Origin: Terriglobia bacterium
GTDB taxonomy: Bacteria; Acidobacteriota; Terriglobia; 2-12-FULL-54-10
Length of the DNA stretch: 64,000 nt
Assembly (NCBI GenBank): GCA_963666975.2
Contig: CAXVYR010000004.1
Location: 128,001-192,000 of the forward strand
Direction of reading: 5' to 3'
In this document: positions 23,986-45,137 of the stretch, in pieces
Position numbering within the stretch: the first letter of the stretch is position 1
Layout of the letters: every line of letters starts with the position of its first letter
The notes under the pieces: model-generated
Told to the model about the DNA's origin: nothing
The model's database searches: none
What the model saw: the letters and a program-made list of their open reading frames with translations, nothing else
Translations under genes and position numbers: made by a program

Positions 23986-24123
23986 CAGCCCTGCAAGGGC
24001 GGCAGATCCTAGCCCAGGACGTAAGCGCTGGGACAACGGGGCCGGTATTACCCCGAGCCCTGGAGGGGCGCAAGACGCTTCGGCCCTCTTCTTTCGCCCC
24101 TTCTGGCACCCCTTCCGGGGCTG
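23986..24123. repeat. REP-like palindromic element
   Basis: GCCC..AGGGC and CCCAG..CTGGG hairpins; ends CAGCCC...GGGGCTG. Confidence 0.5.
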
Positions 24124-24243: not shown

Positions 24244-26541
24244 ATGAAACTACGTCTGTCGTTAGTGATTCTGTTGCTGTCAATCTCGACAGCTATGGAA
24301 GCACAAGGGAAGCCCCGCTTCGGGGTCGTAGCAAACGTTGGATACAGCCGCTCCAGGAGATGAGAGAAGGTGTCCCAAACTCAGTTGCAGGTTGGGACGG
24401 CGGGTTGAGTTCATATTACGCCACTTTCTCCTTGTGAGAGGAAGCAGCGTTTGGACTTCGGCCGAGAATCGATGCCAAAGCCCAGAGATCGTGATAACCC
24501 ATGATCTTCCGGAAATTCTTCTCGGTCAGCAGAAACGCTCCTGCCACCCAGCGCAACGTCATCTCGCCGTCGCGCCAGCGGCAAACATTGCCAGTCTTTT
24601 TCCGCACGCCCGACTGCGGGCTCTCGATGAGGTTCGTGGTTGCCAGGCAGCGGTGGAGGCTGGGAGGAACGTCGGCTCGATTGATCGTAAAGGTCTCCTC
24701 CAACCCTTCGCGCAAGCTGGCGGCTGCTGCCGGATGATCGCACTCGATCATCCCAGCGAGCTTTTTTATGCGCACGATGCCTTCCTCGGCTTGGGGCAAT
24801 CGCCAGGCGGCGCGCATCAGCGACCGCACCTGATTCGCCAGCATTTTGTCGCCCTTTGGTAACCGCTCAGCCACGTTGCGCAGCTTATGAGTACGGCAAC
24901 GCTGCACCAGCTGATTGCTGCCGAATACTTCCTCGATCCCCGCGCGGAGCGCTTTGGCGCCGTCGATCACAAACAGATAGCGCTGATCCGTGCGCAAACC
25001 TTGCTGGCGCAGGCGGGTGAGAAGGTCTTTCACCGCAGCGGCGTTTTCGGTCGCGCCCAGTTGAATCCCCAGCACATGCTTGCGGCCCTCGCTGTCCACG
25101 CCCACGGCGCTGATGACGTGGTGGGAGCCGAACCGCATTGCGGAAAAGCGAGAAGACGTCCAGGTAAATCACCAGAATCTCGACCTCCTCCCAGCGCCGC
25201 GCCAACAGTTCTTCCAGCCGCCGCGCTCCTTGCTCGGCCGCTTCCCGGCTCACCTGAGACTTCGACACCCCAGCGCTGTTGGCCATCTCCGGGATCACCT
25301 CGCGGTAGTTCCGCGTCGAAACCCCTTTCAACAGTGCCTCGAGCAAGGAGCTTTTCCGCGGCTTCGTAGGCCGGACCGAACTGTTGCAGCGCGGCGCTGG
25401 GAGGAGTTTCGAGATTCTGGTGATTTACTCTGGACGCGAATGCGGTTCGGCTCCCACCACGTCATCAGCGCCGTGGGCGTGGACACCGCAAGCATGTGCT
25501 GGGGATTCAACTGGGCGCGACCGAAAACGCCGCTGCGGTGAAAGACCTTCTCACCCGCCTGCCGCCAGCAAGGTTTGCGCACGGATCAGCGCTATCTGTT
25601 TGTGATCGACGGCGCCAAAGCGCTCGCGCGGGGATCGAGGAAGTATTCGGCAGCAATCAGCTGGTGCAGCGTTGCCGTACTCATAAGCTGCGCAACGTGG
25701 CTGAGCGGTTACCAAAGGGCGACAAAATGCTGGCGAATCAGGTGCGGTCGCTGATGCGCGCCGCCTGGCGATTGCCCCAAGCCGAGGAAGGCATCGTGCG
25801 CATAAAGAAGCTCGCTGGGATGATCGAGTGCGATCATCCGGCAGCAGCCGCCAGCTTGCGCGAAGGGTTGGAGGAGACCTTTACGATCAATCGAGCCGAC
25901 GTTCCTCCCAGCCTCCACCGCTGCCTGGCAACCACGAACCTCATCGAGAGCCCGCAGTCGGGCGTGCGGAAAAAGACTGGCAATGTTTGCCGCTGGCGCG
26001 ACGGCGAGATGACTGTTGCGCTGGGTGGCAGGAGCGTTTCTGCTGACCGAGAAGAATTTCCGGAAGATCATGGGTTATCACGATCTCTGGGCTTTGGCAT
26101 CGATTCTCGGCCGAAGTCCAAACGCTGCTTCCTCTCACAAGGAGAAAGTGGCGAAATATGAACTCAACCCGCCGTCCCAACCTGCATTCTGAGTTTGGGA
26201 CACCTTCTACTCCAGGAGATGAGAGGTACTTCCTGGACACGTTTTCAAATGGACAGCAACGATGCCGTGATAGAACGAATGGACAATTCGCGCGTACTGA
26301 ACTGTGTAGTGGTAGCGTATACGCCATCACAGCGGGCATGTTCGACATCAATATCATAGGCGCTACGCAGTTTCCGATATTTATCGGCGCTGGATATAGG
26401 GCAGGCCCCGCGCACGGTGCTTACCTAAATCTCGGCTATGCTCAGCCCGTCAGCAACAACAGGTCAGTGTGGTTCATTAAAAGCAGCGTCGGCAGATATA
26501 TTCTCCAAGGGCACATTGGTATTGCGGTTCATTGGCCGTGA
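24244..26541 (+). pseudogene. Secreted protein gene interrupted by the IS256 structure
   Basis: Signal-peptide 5' part (MKLRLSLVILLL..VGYS) and 3' part (PGDERYFLDTF..IAVHWP) meet at the duplicated CTCCAGGAGATGAG. Rejoining also needs a 1-nt indel. Confidence 0.55.
24365..26208. mobile_element. Two 5'-truncated IS256-family copies in inverted orientation
   Basis: FVIDGAKAL, QRCRTHKLRN and TTNLIES IS256 motifs on - (24416-25346) and + (25440-26161); the same end AGAAGGTGTCCCAAACTCAG on both sides. Confidence 0.85.
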
Positions 26542-30961: not shown

Positions 30962-31378
30962 AAAACGGAACGGAAACGGCAGCTAACTGAGCCTTTTGCC
31001 GGTCATTTGCTTCAGCCCAGGACAAAACCCCTCAGGCGTTTTCATCAACAATCCCGGCATCACTAATCCCGGCATCACTGATGCAAACACATCAGGGAGC
31101 AAACACCCCGGGATAGAATTCCCCTCTTAATGTTTTGTTCCGTTTGAACCAGAAACAGATGGCGATGATTTGCGAAATCCCCGGTTTAAGTCGGAAGCGT
31201 CTTGAATTTAGGATGAGATTATACAATGGCTGCAAGCAGCTATCCAGTGGGTTTCTTCGGTGGGTTTCGCCGGACATCCTGCATTCGCCCTTCACAAAAG
31301 GTAAATCGTGCCGGTTTTTGGAGTGGATTATAAAAACGCTTGCAGGGTTCGCTTTCCGCAAGGGCAGACAAAGCAGCC

Positions 31379-31930
31379 TCATTCCGCTTGGTTTTGCTGA
31401 GCCTGTTTGACTCGGATTGCCTTTGCGCGGGCTTCCCAATCTGCCGCCTCGTCCTCGCGTCCCATCTCGCGAAGCAACGCGGCGTAGTTCTCGATGCTGT
31501 GGCTACGCTGGGATGTTCCGCCCCGAAGGCCTTCTCGGCGATCTCCAATGACCGCCGGTAGAGCGGCTCGGCTTCGGCATAATTTCCCTGGGCGTAGTAG
31601 AGCGAAGCCAGGTTGTCGAGGCTCGCGGCAACGTCGGGATGCTCCGCCCCCAAGGTCTTTTCCATGATCGCCAAGGAGCGCTGATAAAGTAGCTCCGCCT
31701 CGGCGTAATTGCCCTGGGCATCGTAAAGAAACGCCAAGTCGTTGAGGCTTGCGGCGACGCCGGGATGCTCCGGCCCCAGAGTCTGTTCCTGGATTGCAAG
31801 CAACCGCGGTAGAACGGCTCGGCCTCGCTGTATTCACCCTGGGCATAGTAGAGGTCCGCCAAGTTCTTGAGTGTTGCGGTCAGGCGCGGGTCTTGCGTGT
31901 CAAAGCTTTCCGCTTCCTGCAGGGCAGTCA
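31379..31930 (-). pseudogene. TPR protein, 3' part (split by the integrative element; two 1-nt frameshifts)
   Basis: LTALQEAESFDTQDPRL..NLA.LY..QG.Y.EAE repeats with GxEHPxVA linkers spread over three frames. Confidence 0.85.
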
Positions 31931-32133
31931 ACCAAGTACAACTTATATGTTGTTCATAATATTAGACATACTTGATATTAACCCAACATGATCCCCTCAT
32001 TGTATCCCTCTTTCCGAACTGGAATCCATTGGACCGTCAGGGACATTCGTGGACAGGTTAGCCGAGAGATTCACCCTGAGTCCGGAAGCCCGAGGCAGTC
32101 GAGTGGGGTAGGCAACCTGCGCGTGGTGCGAAT
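31927..32133. repeat. Element end (attR arm region), copy 1 of an inverted repeat
   Basis: Near-identical reverse complement at 40692-40897 (both translate MIPSLYPSFRTGIHWTVRDIRGQVSR); AT-rich with ATCCC boxes. Confidence 0.9.
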
Positions 32134-32184
32134 GGAAGATCACGGATTGTGCTGCGCCGAGGTTGCGCCGCTCTTGTGTCCGCT

Positions 32185-32367
32185 CGACACGCTCATCGAG
32201 ATCATCTCAATCGCGCAGCAGGCGAGGCCGAACGTCATCGGCCAGATCGAGGACTTGCGCGCCCAGTTGATCGCCTGATTAAGCTTCGCGAAGATGATCC
32301 CTTCACCCTGTGTGCCGGTTTCCGCAGCAGGAATCAGCGAACTTTGTCCCGTCGTCGGGTATGCCAT
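32185..32367 (-). pseudogene. nuoB: 5' fragment of NADH-quinone oxidoreductase subunit B
   Basis: [24 protein letters not shown] is the NuoB signature; similarity stops abruptly after MISMSVS. Confidence 0.88.
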
Positions 32368-32446
32368 CCTGAATCTATTTTTCCACCGGCCTGAGTGCTT
32401 TGCAAACGGCGAACAGCTGGCCACTCTTCGAATGATTCGTGAAGAG

Positions 32447-34036
32447 CTAACCTTTGATTACGTTCTCTCCCTGACCTTCGCGAACAACCCTCGAAGCGTG
32501 GCTTGCGAGGAAACCGTCACGGGATGCACGGGTGAGCACTGAATTCCTGCGCCCCTTTTCCATCCGGTAGATTGAACAAAGAGTTTCTGCACGCTCAATA
32601 TCAGATCCAGCGGAAGAATAATGCCTTGCGATATGATCAATGTCCGCACGCGATCCAAAACGCGCAAGTACACGCTGAGCGGCGGATCGGAGGTATGCGG
32701 GTGAGTGTTCGGATCGATATTTCCGTCGAGCGTAGGCCAATGTTTGATCGGACGGCACTCGCTCACCGGCACTCCAGAACCTCAGTACCACGTAATGCTG
32801 GTATTCATAAACCGCATCTGGAGTTTTGAGAAATTGCAATATTCGGAATTCAGTCTTCGCCAACCACTGAACTTTCCCCATGTATGCTAGGATGGATTTT
32901 GTTTCCTCCGGGTGCTCCTCGAAAAGAGAAGTTGCATGACGCAAGGCAACGCGGTCTTTTGCCTTTCCTAGCCTAGCCAGCAAATAATGGAACAATGTCT
33001 TGTCAAATATCTTCGTGGACTTGATGAAGTGTAGGCGATAGGCTTGTCGAAGAAGTTTAGTGGGAGGTGAAATGTGGTTCTCTGCTAGCAGTTCCTCCGC
33101 TTGTGTGGACGAAAGATAATCGGAGTCTACTCCTACGAGTTCAGCGATTGTATCCTTATACTTTTTAACAAGGGGCTTCAACGTTGGCATAATCCCGTCG
33201 ACTTTTGCGCGGGCAGACTTTACTGACAGAATCTCTGTTTTAGCTGTTTGAAGACTTAGACCGCGATTGCGGAGCAGTTGACTGATGTCCACGAGTGCAC
33301 GCTTTGCTTCCGAAATGCTTCCGCAAAATATCCTGATATCGTCCACATATCTGAGGTGCTTGTAACCTGCCTCGTTAAGAGATTGGTCAACTCGGTCGAG
33401 ATAAAATTTAGCAAGAATATCTGAAGCGCTGATTCCTTGGGGAATCCCGCGACCGGGCACCATCGCCCATCTGTTTAGACAATGGCTCAAGAGTTCTATC
33501 AACGGATTTGAAAGGCCGGCATCTCGGAGATCAGAAATCAGGAGATCAAGGGCAATATGATCATAAAAGCCTGCTAGGTCCGTGCTAATCATGAAATCAA
33601 TTTCCGTTTCCAGTGCCGCGAGGCTTTGGTCGCGAAAATCCTTCCAACAAGCATACGGAAGTTTCAGCCAGTTGACTTGAGTACTGCCCGTAAATTGATA
33701 AGCACAATCGATCGGCGTTTTGGACCACGACATGGATGTGCACACATTTCTATAGGCCTTACCGACGATTGCAGTGAATACAACCTGATCCTGCAAACTC
33801 AGGATTGCCCCCGGTCGAATTCCTCCTTTACCCTTGGGAACGTCACAGATAGTTGCTGTTGAAGGGCTGTAATCGTTACCTGATATCCTTTTCAATAACT
33901 CATCTACCCAAGCATCTTCGCAGGATTGAATTATGGCAAGCTCAACAGGACTGGTTACAAAAACTCTGTCGTTCTTATGGTCTTGGACTACTCTCCTCAA
34001 GGCAAGTGACAAGTCTCGTTTTGACAGCAGCGCCAT
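32447..34036 (-). CDS. Reverse transcriptase, UG/Abi class-1-like, with alpha-helical repeat C-terminus (putative defence RT)
   Basis: [55 protein letters not shown]; ~250 aa helical tail; visibly lower GC than the host. Confidence 0.9.
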
Positions 34037-34046
34037 AGTGCCATGA

Positions 34047-34076
34047 TTATAGCGAAATTTAGATGGCCTAGTCGAT
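34047..34076 (-). promoter_or_regulatory. Putative sigma70 promoter of the RT
   Basis: On the - strand TCGACT-N18-TATAAT, 10 nt before the ATG; no SD, so a near-leaderless transcript. Confidence 0.5.
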
Positions 34077-34311
34077 GATGTGGAGAGCATCTGTGATCCA
34101 GCTTAGGACCGGCTTCCGCGCGGCTTTCATCGTGCAAGAAAGCCAAGTGCAGGTCCCGCGTCGGCGATGCCTCCTCGGGATGACAGCCAAGAAGCGGGCG
34201 GCGATAGTCACGCCGTAGTCGGACAGGATTACTTGCCACAACGGCGCGAGATACTTGAGCCGGGAGCCGAGGAACTGAAGTGCCAATCCCGCCTCGGCGC
34301 CGTCGGGCGAA

Positions 34312-34581
34312 AGGGGGCAGCAATTTGAGGGCGGTCAGATTGCGGCCCCAAGACTCCAACCGGACCCGCCAGACCGTGATGAGAAACAGCCCGCCGACAA
34401 TGACTGCGGCGGCGGGCGCGGCGTAGTACCAGCGAACGATCCAGCCGTAGAAGTTGGAGGTGTGATAGAGCACCAGATCCAGCACCGGATCGTCTCCGGG
34501 CATGGGGAAAGGCCGGTAGAGGAAACTCCAAGCGGAGCAGCCAAGCCCGCCAAAGAACAGGATCGGATAGCGCCATTTCAT
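34312..34581 (-). pseudogene. 5' fragment of a membrane-anchored protein, probably a type IV coupling protein (copy 1)
   Basis: MKWRYPILFFGGLG..YRPFP..DDPVLDLVLYH..WYYAAP; paralog at 42190. The coupling-protein assignment is from recollection of the family. Confidence 0.55.
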
Positions 34582-34599
34582 CGGGCTGGCCTCCGGCGC

Positions 34600-34951
34600 G
34601 TCAGCGCCAGCTTGCGGGTCCCTGTTCGGAGCCTTCCCGCAGGGATAAATCAGACGAGAGCGACCCCCAAAAAAGGGGGGGTCGCTCTCGTCTTTCCCCG
34701 CCCCTCTCCTTCTGGCGCGGGATCGCCGGGTGGCGCGGGATCGCCGGGTAGTGGCGGGCAAACACAAGAGAGGCAAAGAAATGGAAAAAATGAGTGCTGC
34801 CACAAAAAAATGCCGATTCTTGCCCCAACCCCCCCCTTATATAAGTGGCAAAAAAGATCGGCACGGCCACCGTGCACGGCAGGCCCAAAAAACAGTCTAT
34901 CTCGGAAACGTCCACTGGAGTTCCATTGCTGCGGTTCATTAGACTGTCTCC
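34600..34951. repeat. Iteron-rich non-coding region (oriT/ori-like), copy 1
   Basis: Reverse-complement homolog at 41771-42190; GTGGCA/TGCCAC boxes around CTTATATAAG. Confidence 0.65.
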
Positions 34952-35535
34952 ACCACCTTCACGCGGCTCGAAACCCACGTCTCGAAGCCGTCAATTGTGG
35001 CTCCGACTGAGCCGCTTGCCTTGGGAAGGTTCTTCAAATAACTCAACCGCTCTGAGACTCCCTGCAACCCGCCGTACTTCGCTATGATGTCCGTGTCTAA
35101 GGACAAAACCGCTTCCTCGATGGAATGTATTTTCTCCTTCACGGCAGGGTCGTTCCGGCTCGGTCCATCTGCCCTTTGACTGCTCTGCTCGCCAGCTCGC
35201 TGGCTCCAGGTTTCCAGCGCCGCCTCGGCCCGGATTGTGGCTTTGTGGTCTGCGCCGATTGCGACGGCGCGGACCTCGATACCCTTCAACCGTAAAGCCC
35301 TCCAAAGCCACTCATGAGAATTGCCCCAGGAACGCAGTTCGGTGTCGGTATATTTGCCCGGATCGACGTAGGCGAAGGTGGCGGTTTTGGCGTTAGCCGC
35401 GATGGGCAGTTTCAGGGCAAAGTAACGGGTTTGATTCCCCACGGCTCCCTGATAGATGCGGTGGGGAATCCGTTGGCGGTCGATGCCAAGCAAATCGAAG
35501 AAAGCGACCTTTTCCTGCTCGGTGGGAAGCCAGGC
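34939..35535 (-). pseudogene. 3' part of an element backbone protein
   Basis: WLPTEQEKV..RIYQG..RYFALKLPI..FAYVDPG..ELRSWG; upstream sequence in this frame looks non-homologous. Confidence 0.55.
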
Positions 35536-36079
35536 GTCTTCCACGGTTTTCTCCCAACTCTTTCCTTTCGTTGCTATTACACGGTTTTGGGGCGTCTGCT
35601 TTCGCTCGCAACGCCTACGCCTAGCCCGCTTGATGGGCGAGTTTTCTGACGGTCTCTTGACGGTAGTTGCTGCCATCGCCATGCTCTACTGGCCGCGCAG
35701 CTTGTTGTCGAGCGCGATCCAGTCGTTGCGATACCGGCGCTTGATGGCCTCCACCTGCTCCCACAGCTCGCACCCCGTTCCTCCTTCTATCAACTCCGTC
35801 TCGGTTGAAATCCCGAGTTGGACGAGCAGACCCTGAAGTGCCGCATCTAGCTGGCAGGCCGCTCTGTCTTCACCGGGAGCCACTTCCCAGCCCAGTCCTG
35901 GAACTGCTCCTGATGCTCGACCAAGTTCTTGCCGGCAATGAAGATCAGCTTGCACCGTTCACCTTGGCGACACCACATCACCCTCTTCGATCAGGTGGAG
36001 GTACCTATATGGCCTATTGACAACGGCGGGCTTTGCTCACCTATAGGCGTCCTGATGCGCGGGCTGCTGGAATGGAAGA

Positions 36080-36740
36080 TTAACAGCCCCTTCGCCGGCG
36101 CTTCGCCTTCAAACAAGACGGACGGGGCGGCGCAGACTTAACGCCTCCTGCGTCTTCGCGCTTTCGTTCGTAGCGTTCCCTCCGCACTGAGGAGGGGACA
36201 TCGTCTCTTGGATCGGGCAGTGCATCGACATAGTTCTGGGCGATGGCACTATCTCCTTCGGACCGTCGAAATTGGTCATAGACTCGCACCATTTCATGCG
36301 CAAATTTATCGCTGAGGGGCTCTTTGGATGATCTGTATTTGCTTCCGAATTGGCCGACCCATGTGTGGCGGTTCCCAACTCGAAGTAGACGTTTCAGGAG
36401 TGGAAATTTTGTGCCTCCTTTGTTGTCAATTAGCAGGGGAGCGTGCTCGTATCGAAAGGGCATCTACCTTGGTGACCAGATGGCTGCAGAACGGTCTCGG
36501 TAGGGTAACTACCTTCCTGACGGGCGGGCTAAGGAATACAAGGCGGGTGCCAAGTTTTCCGCCTTGCGCGAATGCCAGCCGTATCCCTTTCAGGTCACAA
36601 GCCGTCTTGGGGTGGAGCAGATTGCGGGCATGGCATCCCGTGATGCCGAAGCTGCCGAATTCCCAAAAGGGATCGTCCCGCATGTCCGAACGCCTCCTTG
36701 GTCTGCGAAGATGCACAATGATGACTTTTTCACCGGGCAT
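36080..36740 (-). pseudogene. Nmad3-associated protein, frameshifted
   Basis: VIIVHLRRP..MRDDPFWEFGSFGITGCH, continuing after a frameshift near 36490 as MPFRYEHAPLLIDN. Confidence 0.55.
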
Positions 36741-37220
36741 CAAGTTGTTCCTCTGAACCAACTCAACCTTTTGCCGTAAAAACCAGCTGTAGAATTTTCT
36801 GGCATTCAGAAATGCGGGCGGTCTGGCGCTGCGCTGAATGTAGCCATCTTTCACCGATAGGCCACCCCACTTTTCGAGCAGGCCGGGAGTCACGCGGTAG
36901 GCTCGGTCGCGCCATTCGCCAATTGGGATGCACTTGGTCAAGCGTCCGGATATAGACACCTTCGCGCGGACAACAATGTCAGCAGCAGCAATCTTACGCA
37001 CGCGCGTATGGGCGTTGCTCTTGTACTCAGTAGGAAGAACCGACGTGGCAGGCAGCACCTTATCAACCACGTACAGTCCAACCAACCCGTAGATCAGTTT
37101 CTCTTTCGCTCGAACCGACTTAAGGCCAGCATAGAAAACCAGAAGGTCATCTTCAGATAGATGCTTGATTCCAGCCCCGCGCTTGTCACCGTTGTCGCCA
37201 TAGGTCAGCCACTCAAAGTC
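36741..37220 (-). pseudogene. Nucleotide-modification-associated domain 3 (Nmad3)-like protein, 5'-truncated
   Basis: DFEWLTYGD..DDLLVFYAGL..NAH..SGRL..IPIG..YRV. Confidence 0.65.
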
Positions 37221-37323
37221 ATTGCCTCTCGCATTGCTGATCGTGGTAGACTGTGCCGGGGTTTTTGTCCTCTAAACCTGCCATCGACCCCACGCGCCTT
37301 CAGCTCGTGGAATAGGAAGGAAG

Positions 37324-38328
37324 ATGAAACGAATGATGAAATATCGTCTCTCCCCATTTCTGGTTCTCTTAATCCTGCTGTGCGTCGCGCCGCAAGCTTT
37401 CGGCGCCGATGAACCCGTGTCTTGCTCAGATCACTCCATCAACGCCCACGCTTTGCTCACAACGGGGGACGTTCAGGTGTTCGTTCAATGCGCCCACGAG
37501 TTCGTCCAGCAAGTGGGCTTTGAGGAGGCCCGTCGGGCCTTCCACGAAGACGAGCGTTGGAGAAGCGGTCCAACCTATGTCTTCGTCGACGAAGTGACGG
37601 CAATGAGATTGGATGCCCGAGCTTTCATCTTCCCGCCCGATCCGTCGCTGGAAGGGCAACCCTGGGGCCCGTTGATCGACGCCTACGGCGACTACTACGA
37701 GGAACTGTATCGTGTCATGAGCGTCGTCGATGAAGGCTGGCTCTACTACGCCTTCAGAAACCCGGCTACCGGCAGGGATGAGCCGAAGGCTTCCTACGTC
37801 AAAAAAATCGACTGGGACGGGGTGCCTTCTGCAATCGGCGCGGGCATCTACCGCCGCGACCTTCCCGGCACCTGCGAGGCGGAAGAGGTCAACGCCATGC
37901 AACTCGAGGCAGCGCCTTCCGCCCAGAGGCTGCAGGAGTTTGTCCGTTGCGCCGCCATGGAGCTGGAATCGAGTGGGTACTTCGCCGTCGGGGCGCTATC
38001 CAGCTATCCCCGCTGGCGAAACCAGTCGATCTACGTGTTCGGCCTGGATACCTACGGCAACCCGCTGTTCAGCGGCGATCTCTATAGCCAGCCGTGGTGG
38101 GGCGCCCTTGCCCCCGAGTTGAACGACCATGTGGGCGGACCCTTTGGGGGCCGGGATGTGGTGAGCGTCGGCAACGCCTTCGGCGAAGCCTTCCTGTACT
38201 ACTCGACGCGCAATCCCTTCACCGGGATGCTGCAACGCAAGGTGACTTTCGTCAAGAGGATACTGGTCTATGGCCTGCCGATTCTGGTCGGCGCCGGCTA
38301 TTATCTGGACGGCGAGGAGGGTCCGTAG
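37324..38328 (+). CDS. Secreted double-Cache domain protein, copy 1
   Basis: Signal peptide; two Cache-like units (YVFV..GWLYY..NPATG..EPKASYVK..IGAGIY). Confidence 0.8.
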   Translation: MKRMMKYRLSPFLVLLILLCVAPQAFGADEPVSCSDHSINAHALLTTGDVQVFVQCAHEFVQQVGFEEARRAFHEDERWRSGPTYVFVDEVTAMRLDARAFIFPPDPSLEGQPWGPLIDAYGDYYEELYRVMSVVDEGWLYYAFRNPATGRDEPKASYVKKIDWDGVPSAIGAGIYRRDLPGTCEAEEVNAMQLEAAPSAQRLQEFVRCAAMELESSGYFAVGALSSYPRWRNQSIYVFGLDTYGNPLFSGDLYSQPWWGALAPELNDHVGGPFGGRDVVSVGNAFGEAFLYYSTRNPFTGMLQRKVTFVKRILVYGLPILVGAGYYLDGEEGP

Positions 38329-38524
38329 GTCGGGCCAGGGTGCCTTTCTTGCCTTACCCCTTGACGGCGTGCGGGACTTGAGGAAGGTTATTTTGTGACA
38401 CTCAAAGCCCCGTCGCGGTCCTCGCCGGGCCTGAACTACGGGACGGCCCAGGGAGTGCTGGGGCTCCCGCCCTCAAAACTGCCATCGCTCCCACGCGCCT
38501 TCAACACGTGGAATAGCTAAGGAG

Positions 38525-39529
38525 ATGAAACTGATGAAACTTAGCCTCCCTCCATCTTTGGTTCTCTTAGTCCTACTGTGCGCCGCCCCGCAGGCTTTTG
38601 GTACCACCGAACCCGTGCCGTGCGCGAATAAATCCATCGTTGCCAGCGCCGTGCGCACACTGGGGGACATTCAGGCGTTCGTTCAATGCGCCTATGAGTA
38701 TGTCCAGGAAGTGGGTTTTGAGGAGGCCCGCCGGGCCTTCCACGAGGACGAGCGTTGGAGAAGCGGTCCCATCTATGTCGTCGTCAGCGAAGTGGCACAA
38801 ATGCCCGAGACGGCTCGTGCTTTCGTCTTTCCGCCCGCCCCTTCGCAGGAAGGGCAACCGTGGGGGCCGCTGGTCGATGTCTTCGGCAACGACTACGTCG
38901 TGGAACTACACCGTATCCTGAACAGCTTCAGCACGGGTTGGCTCTACTACTCCGTCACAAACCCAACGACGGGCAGAGATGAGCCGAAGGTTTCCTACCT
39001 CAAGAGCATCCACTGGGACGGGAATCCGGCCTCGATCAGCGCGGGGATTTACCGGCGCGACCTGCCCGGCACCTGCGCGGCGGAAGAGGTCAACGCCGGC
39101 CTGCTCGAATCCGATCCTTCCAACGCGCGGCTGCAGGAGTTCGTCCGTTGCGCCGCCATGGAGCTGGAATCGAATGGGTACTTCGCCATCCGGGCGCTCT
39201 CCAGCGATCCCCGCTGGCGAAACCAATCGATCTACGTGTTCGGCCTGGATACCAACGGCAACTCGCTGTTCAGCGGCAATTTCTACAGCCAGTCGTGGTG
39301 GGGCAGCCTTTCTCCGGAGTTGAACGACCATATAGACGGACCCTTTGGGGGCCGGGACGTGGTGAGCGTTGGCGATGCCTTCGGGGAAACCTTTCTGTAC
39401 TACTCCACGCGCAATCCCTCCACCGGGAGGATGCAGGACAAGGTGGCTTTCGTCAAGAGAGTCGTGATCTCCGGCCTGCCGATCCTGGTCGGCTCCGGCT
39501 ATTACCTGGACGGCGAGGAGGGTCCGTAG
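38525..39529 (+). CDS. Secreted double-Cache domain protein, copy 2
   Basis: Paralog of copy 1; AAGGAG SD. Confidence 0.8.
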   Translation: MKLMKLSLPPSLVLLVLLCAAPQAFGTTEPVPCANKSIVASAVRTLGDIQAFVQCAYEYVQEVGFEEARRAFHEDERWRSGPIYVVVSEVAQMPETARAFVFPPAPSQEGQPWGPLVDVFGNDYVVELHRILNSFSTGWLYYSVTNPTTGRDEPKVSYLKSIHWDGNPASISAGIYRRDLPGTCAAEEVNAGLLESDPSNARLQEFVRCAAMELESNGYFAIRALSSDPRWRNQSIYVFGLDTNGNSLFSGNFYSQSWWGSLSPELNDHIDGPFGGRDVVSVGDAFGETFLYYSTRNPSTGRMQDKVAFVKRVVISGLPILVGSGYYLDGEEGP

Positions 39530-39632
39530 GCCGGGCCTGAACTACGCTACGACCAAAAGGTGGTGCAGGGGTTCCCGCCCTACAAAACCGCCATCGCTCC
39601 CACGCGCCTTCAACTCGTGGAATAGCAAGGAG

Positions 39633-40622
39633 ATGAAACTGGTGAAACTTAGCCTCCCCCCATCTCTGATTCTCTTAATCCTACTATGCGCAGCGCCGCA
39701 GACTTTTGGCGCCGATGAACCCGTGCCTTGCTCGGATCACTCCATCGTTGCCAGCGCCGTGCGCACAACAGGGGACGTTCAGGCGTTCGTTCAATGCGCT
39801 TATGAGTTCGTCCAGGAAGTGGGCTTTGAGGAAGCCCGCAGGGCTTTTAACGAGGACGAGCGTTGGAAAAGCGGCCCCATCTATGTCTTCGTCTCCGAAG
39901 TGACGCCGATGAGCGATCAGGCCCGACTCTTCGTCTTCCCGCCCGCTCGGCCGAGGGAAGGATCAAGCTTAGGACTGTTGATCGACGCCTACGGCAACGA
40001 CTACTACAAGGAACAGCATCGTATCGTGAGCGGCTTCGGCGCGGGCTGGCTCTACTATTCCTTCTTAAACCCCGCGACCGGCCGGGATGAGCCAAAGGCT
40101 ACTTTCATCAAGGGCATCGACTGGGACGGGAATGCGGCCGCAATCGGCGCGGGCATCTACCGCCGCGACCTTCCCGGCACCTGCGAGGCGGAAGAGGTCA
40201 ACGCCATGCAACTCGAGGCAGCTCCTTCCGTCCAGAGGCTGCAGGAGTTTGTCCGTTGCGCCGCCATGGAGCTGGAATCGAATGGGTACTTCGCCATCCG
40301 GGCGTTATCCAGCGATCCCCGCTGGCGCAGCCAATCGATCTACGTGTTCGGCCTGGATACCTACGGCAACGCGCTGTTCAGCGGCAATCTCTACAGCCAG
40401 CCGTGGTGGGGCGCCCTTGCCCCCGAGTTGAACGACCATGTGGACGGACCCTTTGGGGGCCGGGATGTGGTGAGCGTCGGCAACGCCTTCGGTGAAACCT
40501 TCCTGCACTACTCGACGCGCAATCCCTCCACCGGAATGCTGCAGCGCAAGGTGGCTTTCGTCAAGAGGATAATAGTCTATGGCCTGCCGATTCTAGTCGC
40601 CGCCGGCTATTATCTGGATTGA
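39633..40622 (+). CDS. Secreted double-Cache domain protein, copy 3
   Basis: Paralog that is a mosaic of copies 1 and 2. Confidence 0.8.
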   Translation: MKLVKLSLPPSLILLILLCAAPQTFGADEPVPCSDHSIVASAVRTTGDVQAFVQCAYEFVQEVGFEEARRAFNEDERWKSGPIYVFVSEVTPMSDQARLFVFPPARPREGSSLGLLIDAYGNDYYKEQHRIVSGFGAGWLYYSFLNPATGRDEPKATFIKGIDWDGNAAAIGAGIYRRDLPGTCEAEEVNAMQLEAAPSVQRLQEFVRCAAMELESNGYFAIRALSSDPRWRSQSIYVFGLDTYGNALFSGNLYSQPWWGALAPELNDHVDGPFGGRDVVSVGNAFGETFLHYSTRNPSTGMLQRKVAFVKRIIVYGLPILVAAGYYLD

Positions 40623-40691
40623 AGCGAGCCGGTTCGCAAGCGGCCGACTATCGGGCCGCTGAAGCACAGCGGCACAGCCAGCGAATCTCCG

Positions 40692-40911
40692 ATTCGCAGC
40701 ACACGCAGATTGCCACCCTACTCAACCGCCTCGGACTCCCGGACTCCGGGTGAATCGCTCGGCTAACCTGTCCGCGAATGTCCCTGACGGTCCAATGGAT
40801 TCCCGTTCGGAAAGAGGGATACAATGAGGGGATCATGTTGGGTTCATATCAAGTATATCGATTATTATGAACAACTTATAAGTTTAACTTGGTTGACGCT
40901 ACCTCAGGCAT
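40692..40911. repeat. Second element end (attR-like), inverted relative to 31927-32133
   Basis: Ends TGGTTG-ACGCTACCT-CAGGCAT: the same core arm but a different 9-bp spacer. Confidence 0.85.
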
Positions 40912-40986
40912 CTTTTCCAAACCCCGTCAAATTTGGTAAGCTGGTGGGACTGCGGTGATGCAGCAGGAATGGTGAGGAGGAGTGCA

Positions 40987-41748
40987 ATGACGGCAGGGTT
41001 CAGGGGTATCGTCCGGCGGCTGTCTCCGCTGATTCTGTTGCTGGCCTGCGGTCTGCCGGCCCAGGCCCAGGACCGGGCCGCTCTCGAGCAGCGCCTCAGC
41101 GAGCGCGTGGAGCAGCTCTATCAATTGTTCGTTTCCGGCGACTGGAGCAAGGTGGACGCATACATCACGGATGATTCCCGGAACATCTGGCTGGCCCAGG
41201 CCAAAAACACCATCGAAGCGTTTGAGATTGACGCGGTGACGGTCGCGCCCGACGGCTAAAAGGCCGACGTCACCGTGATGATCTCCTACCGCATCCCGCA
41301 AGCTCTCGGCGCGCCCTTCACCCAGCCGCAGAAGACCGAGTGGCTCCATCAGGGAGGAGAGTGGTTTGTCCAGTTGAAGCCTCCGCCTTCCCCGATGGAC
41401 CTGTTCACAAAGGGTGCCACCGCCGTAAAGCCTGCCGCACCGAAGCCCGCCTTCCGGTTCGACCAAAACCCCGTGAGCATTGCCCGTCCGGCAGCGGGCT
41501 TCAAAGCCGTTGTAAAAGTCCCCTTTGAAAATGTGACGACCGAGGTGGTGACCCTCCAGGACGTCATCACCACCTGCCCTTGCCTGCAGGCCAAGGTGGA
41601 TCAAGCGGTGATCGACCCGGGCGGAAAAGGAGTCCTCACGATCACCTATCTTCCCTCCGAAGCGCCCTCTTTCCAGCAACCGCTCAGCGTCCGAGCCGTG
41701 CTCGCTCCGTCAAACTACGTTTTGGATCTGCCGGTGGTGATTAAGTAG
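40987..41748 (+). pseudogene. Secreted protein with C-terminal DUF1573/Ig-like domain and an in-frame TAA at 41257
   Basis: AGGAGG SD; signal peptide; PFEN..V.TTCPC..IDPGGKG.L.ITY; frame continuous across the TAA. Confidence 0.65.
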
Positions 41749-41770
41749 GTAGCGACAGGCCTTAGGTAGG

Positions 41771-42190
41771 GGAGACAGTCTAATGAACCGCAGCAATGGA
41801 ACTCCAGTGGACGTTTCCGAGATAGAGCGTTTTTTGGGCCTGCCACAAACGGTGGCCGTGCCGATCTTTTTTGCCACTTATATAAGGGGGGGTTGTGGCA
41901 AGAATCGGCATTTTTTTGTGGCAGCACTCATTTTGTCCATTTCTTTGCCTCGCAGTGGTTTTCCTGCTACTACCAGGCCATCCCGCGCCAGAAGGAGAGG
42001 CGCGGGGAAAGACGAGAGCGACCCCCCCTTTTTTGCCGCTCTATCGGCAAACAGGAAAAGGGGTTTGTGGCAGGGTTTGTGGCATACCCTGCCACCCCCT
42101 TTTGGGGGTCGCTCTCGTCTGATTTATCCCTGCGGGAAGGCTCCGAACCCTAACCCCAAAAGGGCGCTGAGGCGCCGGAGGCAAGCCCCA
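41771..42190. repeat. Iteron-rich non-coding region, copy 2
   Basis: Inverted homolog of 34600-34951 with an extra GGGTTTGTGGCA tandem. Confidence 0.65.
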
Positions 42191-42575
42191 TGAAAATACG
42201 CCATCCGATCCTGATAGTTGCTGGGCTTGGCTGCTCCGCTTGGGGTTTCCTCTACCGGCCTTTCCCCCTGCCCGGCCACGATCCAATGCTCGACCTGGTG
42301 CTCTATCACACCCCCAACTTCTACACCTGGATCGTCTGGTGGTACTACATCGCGCCAGCCGCCGCCGTCGTCGTCAGCGGACTGTTTCTCATCACGGTCT
42401 GGCGGGTCTGGTTTGAGTCTTGGGGCGTCGGCCTTCCGAACATCCAGATGCTTCCACCGTGGCCCGTGAATCCCGCAGAAGACGACGGGCCGTCGATCGT
42501 TGTTGGGGAGGTTCATCACCCGGTCAAAGCCGTCGAATCTCGTAACCCTTCCTGGCTCATTATCCCGGAGCGCGG
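42190..42575 (+). pseudogene. 5' fragment of the probable coupling protein (copy 2)
   Basis: MKIRHPILIV..LPPWP..SIVVGEVHHPV..PSWLIIPERG, truncated where a P-loop region would be expected. Confidence 0.6.
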
Positions 42576-42633
42576 CCGCGCGCGCGCGTGGCCCCTGGCG
42601 GGCCGTGTCGCGTGCGATAATCCCTATTGATAA

Positions 42634-43354
42634 GGGGCTGTCCTAGCTAAGGGTGATTCTGTCTCGATTTGATCCATGTCTTCAATTGGTTAAGCAGTGT
42701 CCGGTGGTTACCGCCATTGAAGCGCCATTCGCACTCCTTCAGGAAGAGGTGAAAACTCTGTTTGGGCACCCCGTTGAAGCGCCGAAGATGCCGCTTTGCC
42801 TGGTTCCAGAAGTTCTCGATCCCATTGATGTGGTTCCGTTCGTCGACGAACCGTTCCGAGTGGTTGATCCGAACATGGTGGAAGTCCGACACATCCAGAG
42901 CATCGTAGCTCGAAAAGCCATCCGTGTAGACGATGCTGTCGGGCTGGATCAGGCGCTCCATGATCGGCATCAACGTGTCCGTACGGGCATTGGGGATCAT
43001 CACCGTGTAGACCCTTCCTCCACGCTTCAAAAGCCCGAAAACCGGGACTTTCCCGCCAGCACCACGACCGCGTTTGCCCTTGCGGCGACCACCGAAGTAA
43101 CTCTCGTCCACTTCGATTTCGCCGCAAACCGAAGAGGCTTTCTGGGTCTCCTCGGCAATCACCGTGCGAATCCGTGTATAGAACGAAGCGGCCGTGTTCC
43201 GATGAACCCCGACAAGCTCAGCCGCCGCCCGTGCCGTCGTCCCGGCAACGAAGTGCTCCACCAACCGATCCCGCTTCGCCTTGCTCAGCCGACTACGCCG
43301 TTCGTACATATCGCCATCCTATCCCTAAGCAATCTGCTTAGCTAGGACAGCCCC
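42634..43354 (-). mobile_element. IS1595-family (IS1016-like) element, 721 bp; transposase 42647-43309
   Basis: Perfect 18-bp IR GGGGCTGTCCTAGCTAAG; 8-bp TSD ATTGATAA; EVDESYFGG, VYTDG, HINGIENFW. Confidence 0.95.
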
Positions 43355-43489
43355 ATTGATAATTACATGTATGGCGAAGGATTCTGAGGGCAGGGAGAAC
43401 ACGCCCCCATGACCAATGGACCAGCGATCGTCATCGGCGGCGAGTGTCCGACTTGGCCAGACGGCCCTCGAACCCTGAAGGCGCTGCCC

Positions 43490-43566
43490 GCCAGCCACTC
43501 CGCCTCGCAGCGGGTCCACCCGTGCGTCATCAGGACAGCCGCTCGGTCCCGAAGATGGGCGATCAT
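43490..43566 (-). pseudogene. 5' stub of a backbone gene translationally coupled to the integrase
   Basis: TGATG overlap with the int stop; MIAHLRDRAAVLMTHGWTRCEAEWLA, then degenerates. Confidence 0.5.
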
Positions 43567-44789
43567 CAACCGGCGCTCTCGCGCTCGCTGTCGAGGTAGG
43601 CTGCCCAGTCATGCATCAAAATCCGCCGACGTTCAAAGAGGTCCGAGCGGGCGTAGGCCGCCTCGACCTTGTTCCGGACCACATGCGCCAGGGCCGCCTC
43701 GATCACCTCTCGTGGATGATTCGTCTCCTCGGCCGCCCAGTCGCGGAAACTGGAGCGGAAACCGTGCGGCACGGCGGAGATCTTTAAGTCCTTTAGCAAT
43801 CCCGACAGCATCATGTCGCTGAGTTGCTTTCCTTGCTGCACGCTCGGGAACAGCAGCGGGCCGCCGCCTTCGCCCAGCGTCCGGGCCGCGTCGAGAATCT
43901 CTATGGCACGGCGGCACAGCGGCGCCCGCTGCTCGCGATTCGCCTTCATCCGCGTGGCCGGAATCGTCCACACACCCTCGTCCCGATCGATCTCCGTCCA
44001 CACCGCCCCACGCACCTCACCGGACCGCGCCGCCGTCAGCACCAGGAACTCGAACGCCAGCTTCACGACCGGCCTCGCATTCGATGCCCGGATCGTCTCG
44101 ATGGCCGCCGGCACCTCCCGGTGGGGCAATGTCCGCATGTGCTGCACAACACCGTGTTGGGCACCGAGCACCGGCACCACCCGGTCACAGGGGTTGTCGA
44201 TACGAAATTCCATCGCCACGACCCATTCCAACACCGCGCGCATGCGCTGCTGGACGCAACGGGCCATGACCGCCTTCCGGTGCCAGATGGGCGTGAGGAT
44301 CTCCAGCACATCGGCACTGCTCACTTCTGAGACCGGCATCTTGCCGATCCGCGGAAAAGCGTAGCGTTCCAGGCTGCTCAGCCAGTCCCTCGGGTGAGTC
44401 GAACTACGCCAGCCGGCCTGCTTCTGTTGCAGCACGCGCGCAGCAGCTTCGGCGAAGCTGGGCACGCCCTGGGCGCGGCGTTTCTCTGCCAGCGGGTCAC
44501 CGCCCTCGCGGGCTAGCTTGCGATTGGTCAATGCCTTTTCGCGAGCCTCGGCGAGCGAGACCAGTGCGACACTGCCGAGTCCGAGCTCGCGGCGTCGGCC
44601 TCGGATGATGAGACGTTGAATCCAGCTCCGGGTTCCGCTAGGCTGGACGAAGAGGTACAGCCCGTTGCCGTCAGCGTGTCTTCCCACTCCGGCTGAGCGC
44701 ACGAAGGAGGCCGATAGGACCTTGTCGGGATGGCGGCCTTTGGGCTTGGTTTTTGGTGGTAGGCTGACTGTCTTGATTACAGCAATCAT
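43566..44789 (-). CDS. Tyrosine integrase, P4/IntA-like, with arm-binding domain
   Basis: ADGNGLYL..RELGLG..SLAEAR (DUF4102); catalytic LTAARSGE, RMK, HGFRSSF, LAH and AY. Confidence 0.95.
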   Translation of the reverse strand: MIAVIKTVSLPPKTKPKGRHPDKVLSASFVRSAGVGRHADGNGLYLFVQPSGTRSWIQRLIIRGRRRELGLGSVALVSLAEAREKALTNRKLAREGGDPLAEKRRAQGVPSFAEAAARVLQQKQAGWRSSTHPRDWLSSLERYAFPRIGKMPVSEVSSADVLEILTPIWHRKAVMARCVQQRMRAVLEWVVAMEFRIDNPCDRVVPVLGAQHGVVQHMRTLPHREVPAAIETIRASNARPVVKLAFEFLVLTAARSGEVRGAVWTEIDRDEGVWTIPATRMKANREQRAPLCRRAIEILDAARTLGEGGGPLLFPSVQQGKQLSDMMLSGLLKDLKISAVPHGFRSSFRDWAAEETNHPREVIEAALAHVVRNKVEAAYARSDLFERRRILMHDWAAYLDSERESAG

Positions 44790-44795
44790 CCCACC

Positions 44796-44824
44796 ATTAT
44801 AAATGGGATGACCGTGGATTTCAA
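44796..44824 (-). promoter_or_regulatory. sigma70 promoter of the integrase (leaderless)
   Basis: TTGAAA-N17-TATAAT-N6-ATG; the -10 is bracketed by the CATCCCA/TGGGATG inverted repeat. Confidence 0.7.
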
Positions 44825-44936
44825 GGGAAGTAGTGGGCAATAAAATGTGCGTCAGTATTCATATATCTAATTGAATATATAGATAGTTATAAACTCTCCT
44901 GGACGATTATGGATGTTGTTGGATTCTGATAGATGG

Positions 44937-45137
44937 CTGTAGGGCAGTCAGCCATTGCTCCTCGGCCTCGGCGTAGAGACCTTGCTCATAGGCCTCGGTT
45001 CCGGTGTCGTTATATCTCTCCCACATCGCGCCGCGGCATGCTTGCGTAGAGGCCAGCAGCATACACAGAACTCCTGCCTGCCACAGATGGGTTCGGGCGT
45101 TCATATCCTCTGCCTCCTTTGCCTCCTTTAGCTTCAT
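44937..45137 (-). pseudogene. TPR protein, 5' part with signal peptide
   Basis: MNARTHLWQAGVLCMLLA..WERYN..G..AYEQG.YAEAEEQWLTALQ ends at the att core. Confidence 0.85.

Follow-up and report, generated by a model that had tools for sequence, protein, structure and literature searches.

The question raised by this locus is to which kind of enzyme a solitary reverse transcriptase (RT) gene of low guanine-plus-cytosine (GC) content belongs, and whether this enzyme acts by itself. The gene is located on the minus strand of a stretch of 64,000 nucleotides from a Terriglobia bacterium (assembly GCA_963666975.2, contig CAXVYR010000004.1, positions 128,001 to 192,000), which is called here the window. 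The original prediction, made from the letters of this stretch, had described it as a Class 1 UG/Abi-like RT carried as cargo by a mobile element, serving phage defence as a single gene and possibly coming from an uncharacterised UG clade. We report here that the RT is an intact and typical member of the named group UG21, which belongs to the Class 1 UG/Abi RTs, and is not a new clade. The reading that we prefer, with a probability of about 60%, is that the product of this horizontally acquired cassette would act alone, by protein-primed and untemplated synthesis of single-stranded DNA (ssDNA), in a phage defence of the abortive-infection type.

The RT protein was compared with the PADLOC profiles, of which 85 families gave a match and the best 25 were inspected. 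The profile RT_UG21 is matched over its positions 2-501 of 503 (E 5.7e-142, 472 bits), and the runners-up are UG19 (210 bits), then UG20, UG32, UG22 and Drt8/UG7 (187 bits). A quick maximum-likelihood tree of 68 rows, whose labels come from PADLOC best hits and whose rows do not include the reference sequences of Mestre 2022, was obtained with IQ-TREE and places the RT within a clade of 31 rows labelled UG21, with a value of 100 in the Shimodaira-Hasegawa-like approximate likelihood-ratio test (SH-aLRT). The host phyla are thoroughly mixed in this clade, and UG19 (17 rows), DRT8/UG7 (10 rows) and a Chloroflexota group scoring weakly as UG21 form separate clades. Each label is the best profile of one of the 69 RT genes of at least 400 amino acids (aa) detected in 80 related genome loci, 11 loci having shorter RT open reading frames (ORFs); the rows consist of 67 labelled RTs and the RT studied here, after omission of L035 and L039, which are partial matches (labels in L designate homolog loci or genome copies, in G congeneric genomes, in X public runs and in P homolog proteins). 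The new clade suspected at first has to be abandoned, as profile and tree agree on a group that already bears a name. According to the passages of Mestre 2022 (PMC9226505) that concern it, UG21 is placed in Class 1 of the UG/Abi RTs, a class with a C-terminal alpha-repeat domain, and remote homology to HEAT repeats is described for UG20, UG21 and UG23.

The group is large and homogeneous in length. A word-indexed search gave 347 relatives of the RT among 8000 candidates scored, of which the best 120 all have an E-value below 1e-111 and nearly all measure 505-563 aa. When 1.84 billion cluster representatives (50% identity) were searched exhaustively, 288 proteins were recovered at E <=1e-30 and 1610 at E <=1e-10. 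The closest relative, P0003, displays 79% identity with the RT, and most of the others 36-52%. UG21 is reportedly mentioned by Sharifi and Ye in 2021. A mostly Chloroflexota clade with its own branch in the tree (L041, L042, L046, L050, L053, L059, L064 and L065) was observed besides; its members match RT_UG21 best, narrowly over UG9_small, UG32 or UG20, and it may represent an unnamed group situated between these four.

The assignment to UG21 also bears on the view that the protein is the RT of a group II intron, of a retron, of a diversity-generating retroelement (DGR) or of a CRISPR system, an outcome whose probability we regard as negligible. Weak and partial matches to the core shared by all these enzymes do exist, with 89.8 bits for TIGR04416 and 29.8 bits for retron St85, but the cut-offs are 300 and 235 bits, respectively; more generally, the RT scores far under the cut-offs of the NCBIfam models for group II intron RT, Drt2-5, retron St85 and AbiA. 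The Pfam scan of the protein detects RVT_1 only, with no maturase or endonuclease domain, its C-terminal part is a helical repeat, and no intron RNA is found with Rfam, which argues against a group II intron. A retron RT would be about 300 aa long, instead of 529, and no Rfam match lies next to the gene. Concerning DGRs, there is no Avd gene nearby, and a repeat search from 23300 to 45700 gives only direct repeats of chance size at the RT, apart from the repeat modules a and b (Table 1). No Cas1 gene was detected among the window ORFs scanned, and a Cas1-like gene is found upstream of UG21 in a few homolog loci only (L107, L108, L147). Tree and profiles likewise put the protein in UG21. The absence of maturase, endonuclease, Cas1, Avd or effector genes had been stated beforehand and agrees with the Pfam scan and with the neighbouring genes scanned. 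The outcomes that had been named as fatal to the original prediction, a clustering with group II intron, retron or DGR RTs and a conserved partner or non-coding RNA (ncRNA), were looked for and did not appear.

The gene itself is complete. The enclosing minus-strand ORF extends over 32447..34090 and would encode 547 aa if counted from its first ATG, whereas the alignment with 29 homologs sets the start at the ATG at 34036, giving a protein of 529 aa; the database cluster of this protein likewise has 529 aa. For the span given at first, 32447..34076, the lower coordinate was right and the upper one was not, as 34076 takes in a promoter-like site, whereas the minus-strand coding sequence begins at 34036. 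The length of 529 aa and the complete RT motifs that had been announced hold with the start derived from the homolog set. The YVDD motif corresponds to Y230-V231-D232-D233 (codons at 33338-33349), the aspartate of motif A is D153, and the PQG motif comprises residues 199-201. All the 47 invariant columns of an alignment of 30 sequences are kept, namely D153, YVDD and 42 others, and the motif A aspartate and YVDD residues are conserved at 95-100% across 118 homologs. The TATAAT reported just before the ATG is present at 34051-34046, with TCGACT 18 nt upstream, and nine bases separate it from the start codon, so that the RT messenger RNA would be almost leaderless if this site is used.

An inactive relic, or an incomplete system that lost its partner in the mosaic island, is very unlikely in the face of such conservation. 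The surroundings of the gene are indeed scrambled, with repeat modules, a nuoB-like gene fragment, a TPR gene that is both split and frameshifted, and an insertion of IS1595 type. Other UG21 loci are visibly decayed: among 39 loci from species-representative genomes, about six contain split or truncated genes that do not lie at contig ends (L016, L034, L035, L039, L040 and L047), which indicates that the family decays often. This RT nevertheless retains a full-length ORF, every residue invariant in the family and a promoter-like site of its own. In addition, a variant strain carries an unbroken RT of 97% identity (run X17, contig of 2025 nt, 52 differences, spanning the RT and the nuoB-like fragment), and the homolog loci show no partner that could have been lost. 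The gene is single-copy in its own genome, and the locus is unchanged in the public runs X1 and X16.

A model of the RT was calculated with AlphaFold2 from an alignment of 30 rows, with a predicted local distance difference test (pLDDT) of 92.4 and a predicted template-modelling score (pTM) of 0.90. It displays a mixed alpha/beta core up to about residue 282, followed by helices over residues ~283-528, in accordance with the long helical tail noticed beforehand. With Foldseek, the best matches of the model in the PDB are DRT4, DRT6, UG15, AbiK, AbiA and Abi-P2. A second structure alignment with the whole chain gives DRT6 (9wy8_A) with Z 21.0, a root-mean-square deviation of 4.1, 449 aligned residues and 14% identity, then AbiA (8oz7_C, Z 20.4, 383 residues), DRT4 (9vdo_A, Z 19.2, 447 residues), AbiK (7r06_A, Z 18.7, 458 residues) and Abi-P2 (Z 17.1, 385 residues). 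The highest Z-scores (24-25) are those of group II intron, G2L4 and DGR RTs, but these matches cover only residues 1 to ~283; the C-terminal part aligns only with the Class 1 UG/Abi structures DRT6, DRT4, AbiK, AbiA and Abi-P2. The alpha-repeat tail of the type of AbiK, AbiP2 and AbiA that the original prediction had mentioned is thus borne out by the whole-length fold matches and by the UG21 profile.

The association of the RT with itself was examined by folding two copies of residues 1-500. The score obtained is 0.66, against 0.00 for the best control, and this mark is attained by 20 out of 30 proteins whose solved structures are pairs of one chain, and by one out of 23 whose solved structures are single chains. 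Agreement between the runs extends to at least 89% of contacts, and the pLDDT of the partner is at least 82. The predicted interface of the symmetric dimer involves residues 63-75, 155-165, 192-196, 240-269 and 405-410. This two-copy fold, in which only a dimer was folded, supports a self-association of the RT. In the solenoid, R437, D465 and E493 are invariant and located 28 residues apart, and R497 and N498 are also invariant (118 of 118 homologs); such regular intervals point to an uninterrupted ridge on the solenoid repeats, which may be structural or serve as a binding or effector surface.

A partner gene was searched for in the 39 genome loci and in the window by comparing two genes on each side (141 proteins) with Pfam and PADLOC. 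The survey was extended to 80 metagenome loci, of which 79 have an RT ORF, and 104 of their 111 immediate neighbours were scanned, the 7 others being dropped as they come from duplicate contigs. No partner family is conserved in the 39 genome loci or in the 79 metagenome loci; the commonest neighbour is a serine recombinase (5 of 40 loci), and the next cluster gathers the C-terminal portions of RT genes that are broken. With Pfam and PADLOC, neither Cas1 nor Avd nor a nuclease gene is found among the neighbouring window ORFs scanned. When the 400-nt flanks of 31 intact loci and of the window were compared all against all with BLAST, similarity was detected only within two syntenic sets, one from Poribacteria (L002, L006, L007) and the other from a Hymenobacter pair (L015, L019). 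The gaps between the RT and its upstream and downstream neighbours can be as small as 7 and 18, 2 and 15, 15 and 29, or -4 and 0 nt. Taken together, the lack of a conserved neighbour, the unshared flanks and the gaps of less than 20 nt at some loci look like a single-gene system without flanking ncRNA; UG21 travels as one gene and presumably works alone, as far as can be judged from the sequences. The absence of ncRNA and partner had first been argued from the position of the TATAAT, which is insufficient alone because a separately transcribed RNA would be compatible with it. The survey of homolog loci, the flanks and Rfam give stronger grounds for the same claim.

These results also make it rather improbable that the RT copies an RNA template, like Class 2 DRTs or retrons, with an RNA lying inside the gene or its messenger, or far away. 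The core fold, closest over residues 1-283 to the template-copying RTs of group II introns and DGRs, would agree with such a template; passages of Mestre 2022 (PMC9226505) consider it possible that other UG groups have ncRNAs as well, and the comparison of flanks concerns conservation at the level of sequence and not covariation. Nevertheless, several loci leave no room on either side of the gene, and flanks are unshared across lineages. With Rfam at gathering scores, the whole window contains only an Acido-Lenti-1 motif, 8 kb from the RT; at E <=10, five sub-threshold matches occur between 31000 and 35500 and none is credible. The folding of 308 nt upstream and 306 nt downstream of the RT is no better than that of shuffled sequences (z -1.10 and -0.18, respectively). 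Finally, over its whole length the RT is built like the untemplated Class 1 enzymes.

The scheme of these enzymes can be taken as the best explanation for the RT, given the same architecture, the intact catalytic residues and the lack of partner or ncRNA. For AbiK, Abi-P2, AbiA, DRT4 and DRT6, passages of PMC12783706 and of a preprint (bioRxiv 10.64898/2026.10.21.760695) describe a protein-primed synthesis of untemplated ssDNA, where the initial nucleotide becomes joined to a tyrosine of the enzyme itself and the product is random or purine-rich; hexamers organized as a dimer of trimers were solved for AbiK, DRT4 and DRT6. By analogy, the fingers-and-palm core of the RT would be fused to a HEAT-like solenoid in place of a thumb, and the protein would form a homo-oligomer like its solved relatives. 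DNA synthesis would start on a hydroxyl side chain of the RT, and the ssDNA would then be extended without template. This product may sense or poison phage infection, leading to a defence of the abortive-infection type. Two tyrosines are candidates for priming: Y113, in the palm, within the long loop preceding the helix that leads into motif A, and Y307, in the linker loop between RT and solenoid. Each occurs in 109 of 118 homologs, and among the remaining homologs several have a tyrosine two positions earlier. We tried to retain a single priming residue on the basis of conservation and rejected this choice, since conservation does not separate Y113 from Y307. The position of the priming residue also differs among AbiK, Abi-P2 and AbiA in the account of PMC12783706. 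Concerning DRT4, passages of two preprints (bioRxiv 10.64898/2026.10.21.760695 and 10.64898/2026.10.27.754916) and of PMC13213688 give phage SSB-like proteins and raised deoxynucleoside triphosphate (dNTP) levels as triggers, and attribute the death of the cell to the accumulation of product or to an RNase activity.

Several observations weigh against a defence scheme of this type for UG21. In the parts of Mestre 2022 (PMC9226505) that deal with predictions, UG21 is one of the 16 groups with an inconclusive defence prediction and displays no clear defence enrichment, and no paper on UG21, UG19, UG20, UG22, UG23 or UG32 was found in the literature after it. PADLOC gave no defence match on 21 window ORFs near the RT, except for a weak TPR one. 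Restriction-modification or other defence-type PADLOC hits occur among the four nearest genes in 9 of the 39 genome loci (L004, L011, L019, L022, L029, L030, L031, L032 and L036), which counts in favour of a defence role, but this amounts to only about a quarter of loci, and many copies lie between housekeeping genes; two further genome loci have TatD- or RmuC-like matches that are probably housekeeping. No candidate priming tyrosine is strictly conserved, whereas Tyr125 of DRT4 is reported as invariant. The result of the two-copy fold may reflect only likeness or memory of the model, because hexamers of the structural relatives were already solved. Lastly, expression of the RT rests on one contig of 197 nt covering its 3' end (32408-32604), obtained from the sole RNA library among four public runs, which could be carried-over DNA and does not suffice for a claim about transcription, strand or ends. 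The other pieces from this library fall on the nuoB-like stretch and on a hairpin repeat and derive from other sequences.

The positions of UG21 genes in other genomes are the main ground for another reading, according to which these enzymes are selfish or domesticated polymerases of nucleotide or DNA metabolism, engaged in dNTP sensing or use or in repair, and not primarily in phage defence. Such a role would explain the many copies wedged co-directionally into housekeeping operons. UG21 is located directly behind a ribonucleotide reductase, in the same direction, in two unrelated lineages: with a class II enzyme containing an intein in a Tepidisphaeraceae (L003:642-5993) and a similar metagenome contig (L095:19-3993), and, in two Hymenobacter species (L015:3416-5896 and L019:3487-5907), with an enzyme of class I. 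It also lies co-directionally behind guaA (L018), between aspS and mutL (L024), between metG and tatD (L005) and between two heptosyltransferases (L037); elsewhere it precedes tatD (L116), and its neighbours include a dCTP deaminase (L154), PolB (L139) and a nucleoside deoxyribosyltransferase (L040). The lack of a clear enrichment in the passages of Mestre 2022 quoted above is in line with this role, as is the activation of DRT4 by phage NrdAB and raised dNTP described in part of a preprint (bioRxiv 10.64898/2026.10.27.754916), and ascribed in recent preprints to DRT2 and DRT9 too, which means that such enzymes can read nucleotide pools. We nonetheless judge this reading, though it is the serious alternative, unlikely. 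The counts are small and come from few lineages, and no single housekeeping neighbour is widely recurrent. Other loci are in restriction-modification, Abi, toxin or recombinase settings; in metagenomes, the neighbours of defence or toxin type comprise Abi_alpha (L098, L147), AbiEii (L165), AAA_15 (L149), HsdS with a recombinase (L123) and toxins, besides DUF1156 with DUF499 (L132). The patchy distribution (0 of 60 relatives), the frequent decay and the mobile insert found here fit an accessory gene better than a core one.

Some of these neighbourhoods deserve to be mentioned for themselves. A gene of the TatD nuclease family is located directly downstream of UG21 at L005:7512-8453, with metG upstream, and at L116:5558-6352, with holB upstream. 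The Cas1-like genes found upstream of UG21 are unusually long (511-529 aa; L107:18-1568, L108:2357-3946 and L147:1754-3289), and at L147 the Abi_alpha gene is downstream of UG21. In Hymenobacter fastidiosus (L019:7661-8701), a Bflower gene and a SLATT_5 gene come after UG21, and the SLATT_5 gene matches the PADLOC profile "RT-associated SLATT" (E 7.6e-36); this arrangement, observed in one of the 39 loci, may be a local multi-gene variant.

To return to the cassette that we regard as a stand-alone Class 1 enzyme, its location supports the claim that it is the cargo of an element. Downstream of nuoA, a gene for a TPR lipoprotein on the minus strand is split by an insert of about 13.0 kb (window 31935-44936). 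Its 5' part begins with the ATG at 45104 and stops at 44937; the 3' part (31240-31934) is frameshifted as well. The insert also holds unannotated ORFs, and the RT is situated about 500 nt from the end opposite the integrase (Table 1). Two congeners have an empty site at the syntenic position, with only 41 nt (G002) and 445 nt (G001) between nuoA and the LPG-synthase-like gene that flank it, and a search for the RT at E <=1e-20 found it in none of 60 relatives. The GC content of the RT gene is 48.1%, for 57.7% in the window, in keeping with the low GC noted originally, and 59.1% in the rest of the island. Its 1.6 kb have the lowest GC content in the window, since only 3 of 1249 sliding windows of 1590 nt are as low and each of them overlaps it. 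As the RT deviates in GC even from its own island, it looks like a cassette acquired apart from the rest of the mosaic element, and it most likely arrived by horizontal transfer. When 10 ORFs of the island were compared with PHROGs, nothing but the integrase and the RT core was recognised, so that the insert does not present itself as a prophage.

On either side of the RT lies a repeat module, a on one side and b on the other; module a begins with an AT-rich portion, after which come about 200 conserved bases. Further copies of the modules occur at 5-8 places of the genome, of which several are close to contig ends, and in the genome copy L083 module b adjoins a paralogous integrase; the modules resemble components of a family of small integrative elements. 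They were considered as RNAs linked to the RT and rejected, since the RT is single-copy. The open frames just upstream of the RT (33997-34803 and others) were likewise rejected as partners, the copies of module b having no common frame and no Pfam or PADLOC match. A joint from 32109 to 34631, observed in two DNA runs, was not retained as an allele lacking the RT, as it matches a paralogous a-b junction of the same genome (L082). A piece of 37 nt at 34630-34667, in which one arm of a perfect 17-bp hairpin (34652-34693) is contained, is covered 100-500 times as deeply as its surroundings in all four runs; it is consequently a short repeat of very high abundance in the communities concerned. The nuoB-like fragment scores far under the cut-offs of full-length NuoB and shares 84-87% identity with two places on another contig of the genome.

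Table 1. Positions in the window of the UG21 reverse transcriptase gene, its parts and the surrounding features of the insert.
Feature	Position	Strand	Basis and remarks
UG21 reverse transcriptase gene	32447..34036	minus	ORF and translation; 529 aa; stop codon 32447-32449
RT fingers and palm part	33191..34036	minus	residues 1 to ~282; Pfam RVT_1 E 8.6e-20
C-terminal alpha-helical repeat (HEAT-like) domain	32450..33190	minus	residues ~283-529; AlphaFold2 helices and structure alignment
Promoter-like TCGACT-18-TATAAT	34046..34075	minus	consensus scan, 10/12 matches; consensus match only
nuoB-like gene, 5' fragment	32185..32367	minus	starts 79 nt past the RT stop; NuoB profiles match the first ~55 positions, E 3.6e-15
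Repeat module a	31927..32140		at insert end; inverted copy 40685-40897
Repeat module b	34345..34958		~300 nt upstream of the RT; inverted copy from 41764 to 42426 or 42577
Left 18-nt imperfect direct repeat	31917..31934		sequence; 16/18 identical; encodes WLTALQ of the split TPR gene; marks one insert end
Right 18-nt direct repeat copy	44937..44954		sequence; end of the TPR 5' part
Three tandem Cache-domain paralogues	37324-40622		inside insert; 76-87% nucleotide identity
IS1595-type insertion	42634-43354		inside insert
Tyrosine integrase, far end of insert	43566..44840	minus	Pfam Phage_int_M, Arm-DNA-bind_3, Phage_integrase; PHROG integrase E 1.1e-48

Two other features of the window lie outside the insert. 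A near-perfect palindrome of 1.84 kb (24365-26208) is composed of two inverted fragments of a Mutator-family transposase, with arms complementary at 98-100%, and may have arisen by head-to-head duplication or through an error of assembly. The Acido-Lenti-1 RNA motif is located at 23987-24032 on the minus strand, just downstream of nrdR, and scores 40.7 bits for an Rfam gathering score of 37.

Being a typical UG21 gene, this RT copy alone adds little. The group, in contrast, is large (288 clusters), constant in length, travels alone without flanking ncRNA and has a predicted architecture of the DRT6, DRT4 and AbiK type, traits that make it a good compact candidate as the next Class 1 system to assay. 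The seats recurring behind ribonucleotide reductase and before TatD bear on the silencing and triggering of such enzymes. A bolder idea, which we put forward as improbable, is that UG21 polymerases are coupled to the dNTP supply of the cell and to the metabolism of DNA ends, beyond an island-borne defence. If this were true, the co-directional seats behind ribonucleotide reductase or guaA and before TatD would tie untemplated synthesis to nucleotide pools and to nucleases clearing the product, and the invariant ridge of Arg437, Asp465, Glu493, Arg497 and Asn498 would be a sensor or effector surface.

Compared with the known systems, UG19 and DRT8 (UG7) are the nearest named neighbours in sequence, with near whole-length profile matches and sister clades in the tree. 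According to passages of Mestre 2022 (PMC9226505), UG7 is paired with a PD-(D/E)XK nuclease and UG19 possesses an additional domain, either fused or adjacent, whereas neither a nuclease partner of the UG7 type nor an extra domain of the UG19 type is found in this RT or in the surveyed UG21 loci. The lactococcal AbiK, Abi-P2 and AbiA (7r06, 7r08 and 8oz7) match the fold over the whole length with Z 17-20, at only 10-16% identity; AbiA possesses an extra HEPN domain, as stated in part of Mestre 2022 (PMC9226505), which is absent from this RT by Pfam. DRT4 (UG15; 9vdo, 9l9s) is also a single gene with the same RT and alpha-repeat architecture and, among these enzymes, the most thoroughly studied model of the mechanism proposed here, but the RT scores 53.3 bits with the NCBIfam model Drt4 (NF041749), for a cut-off of 450. 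In the helix and strand register that we inferred, the priming Tyr125 of DRT4 would correspond to UG21 position 128, which is mostly Phe in the alignment; as for the RNase pair His160/Asp192 of DRT4, position 160 of UG21 is mostly Asn in this register, and the histidine has no conserved counterpart there. DRT6 (UG12) is the best structural match over the whole length, and both are single-gene RTs with a helical tail, although no DRT6 or UG12 profile appears among the best 25 of the 85 PADLOC matches of the RT. Within UG21 itself, the RT shares with the other members the length of about 525 aa, the RT core followed by a HEAT-like tail and the single-gene organization, and it differs from them in nothing of substance.

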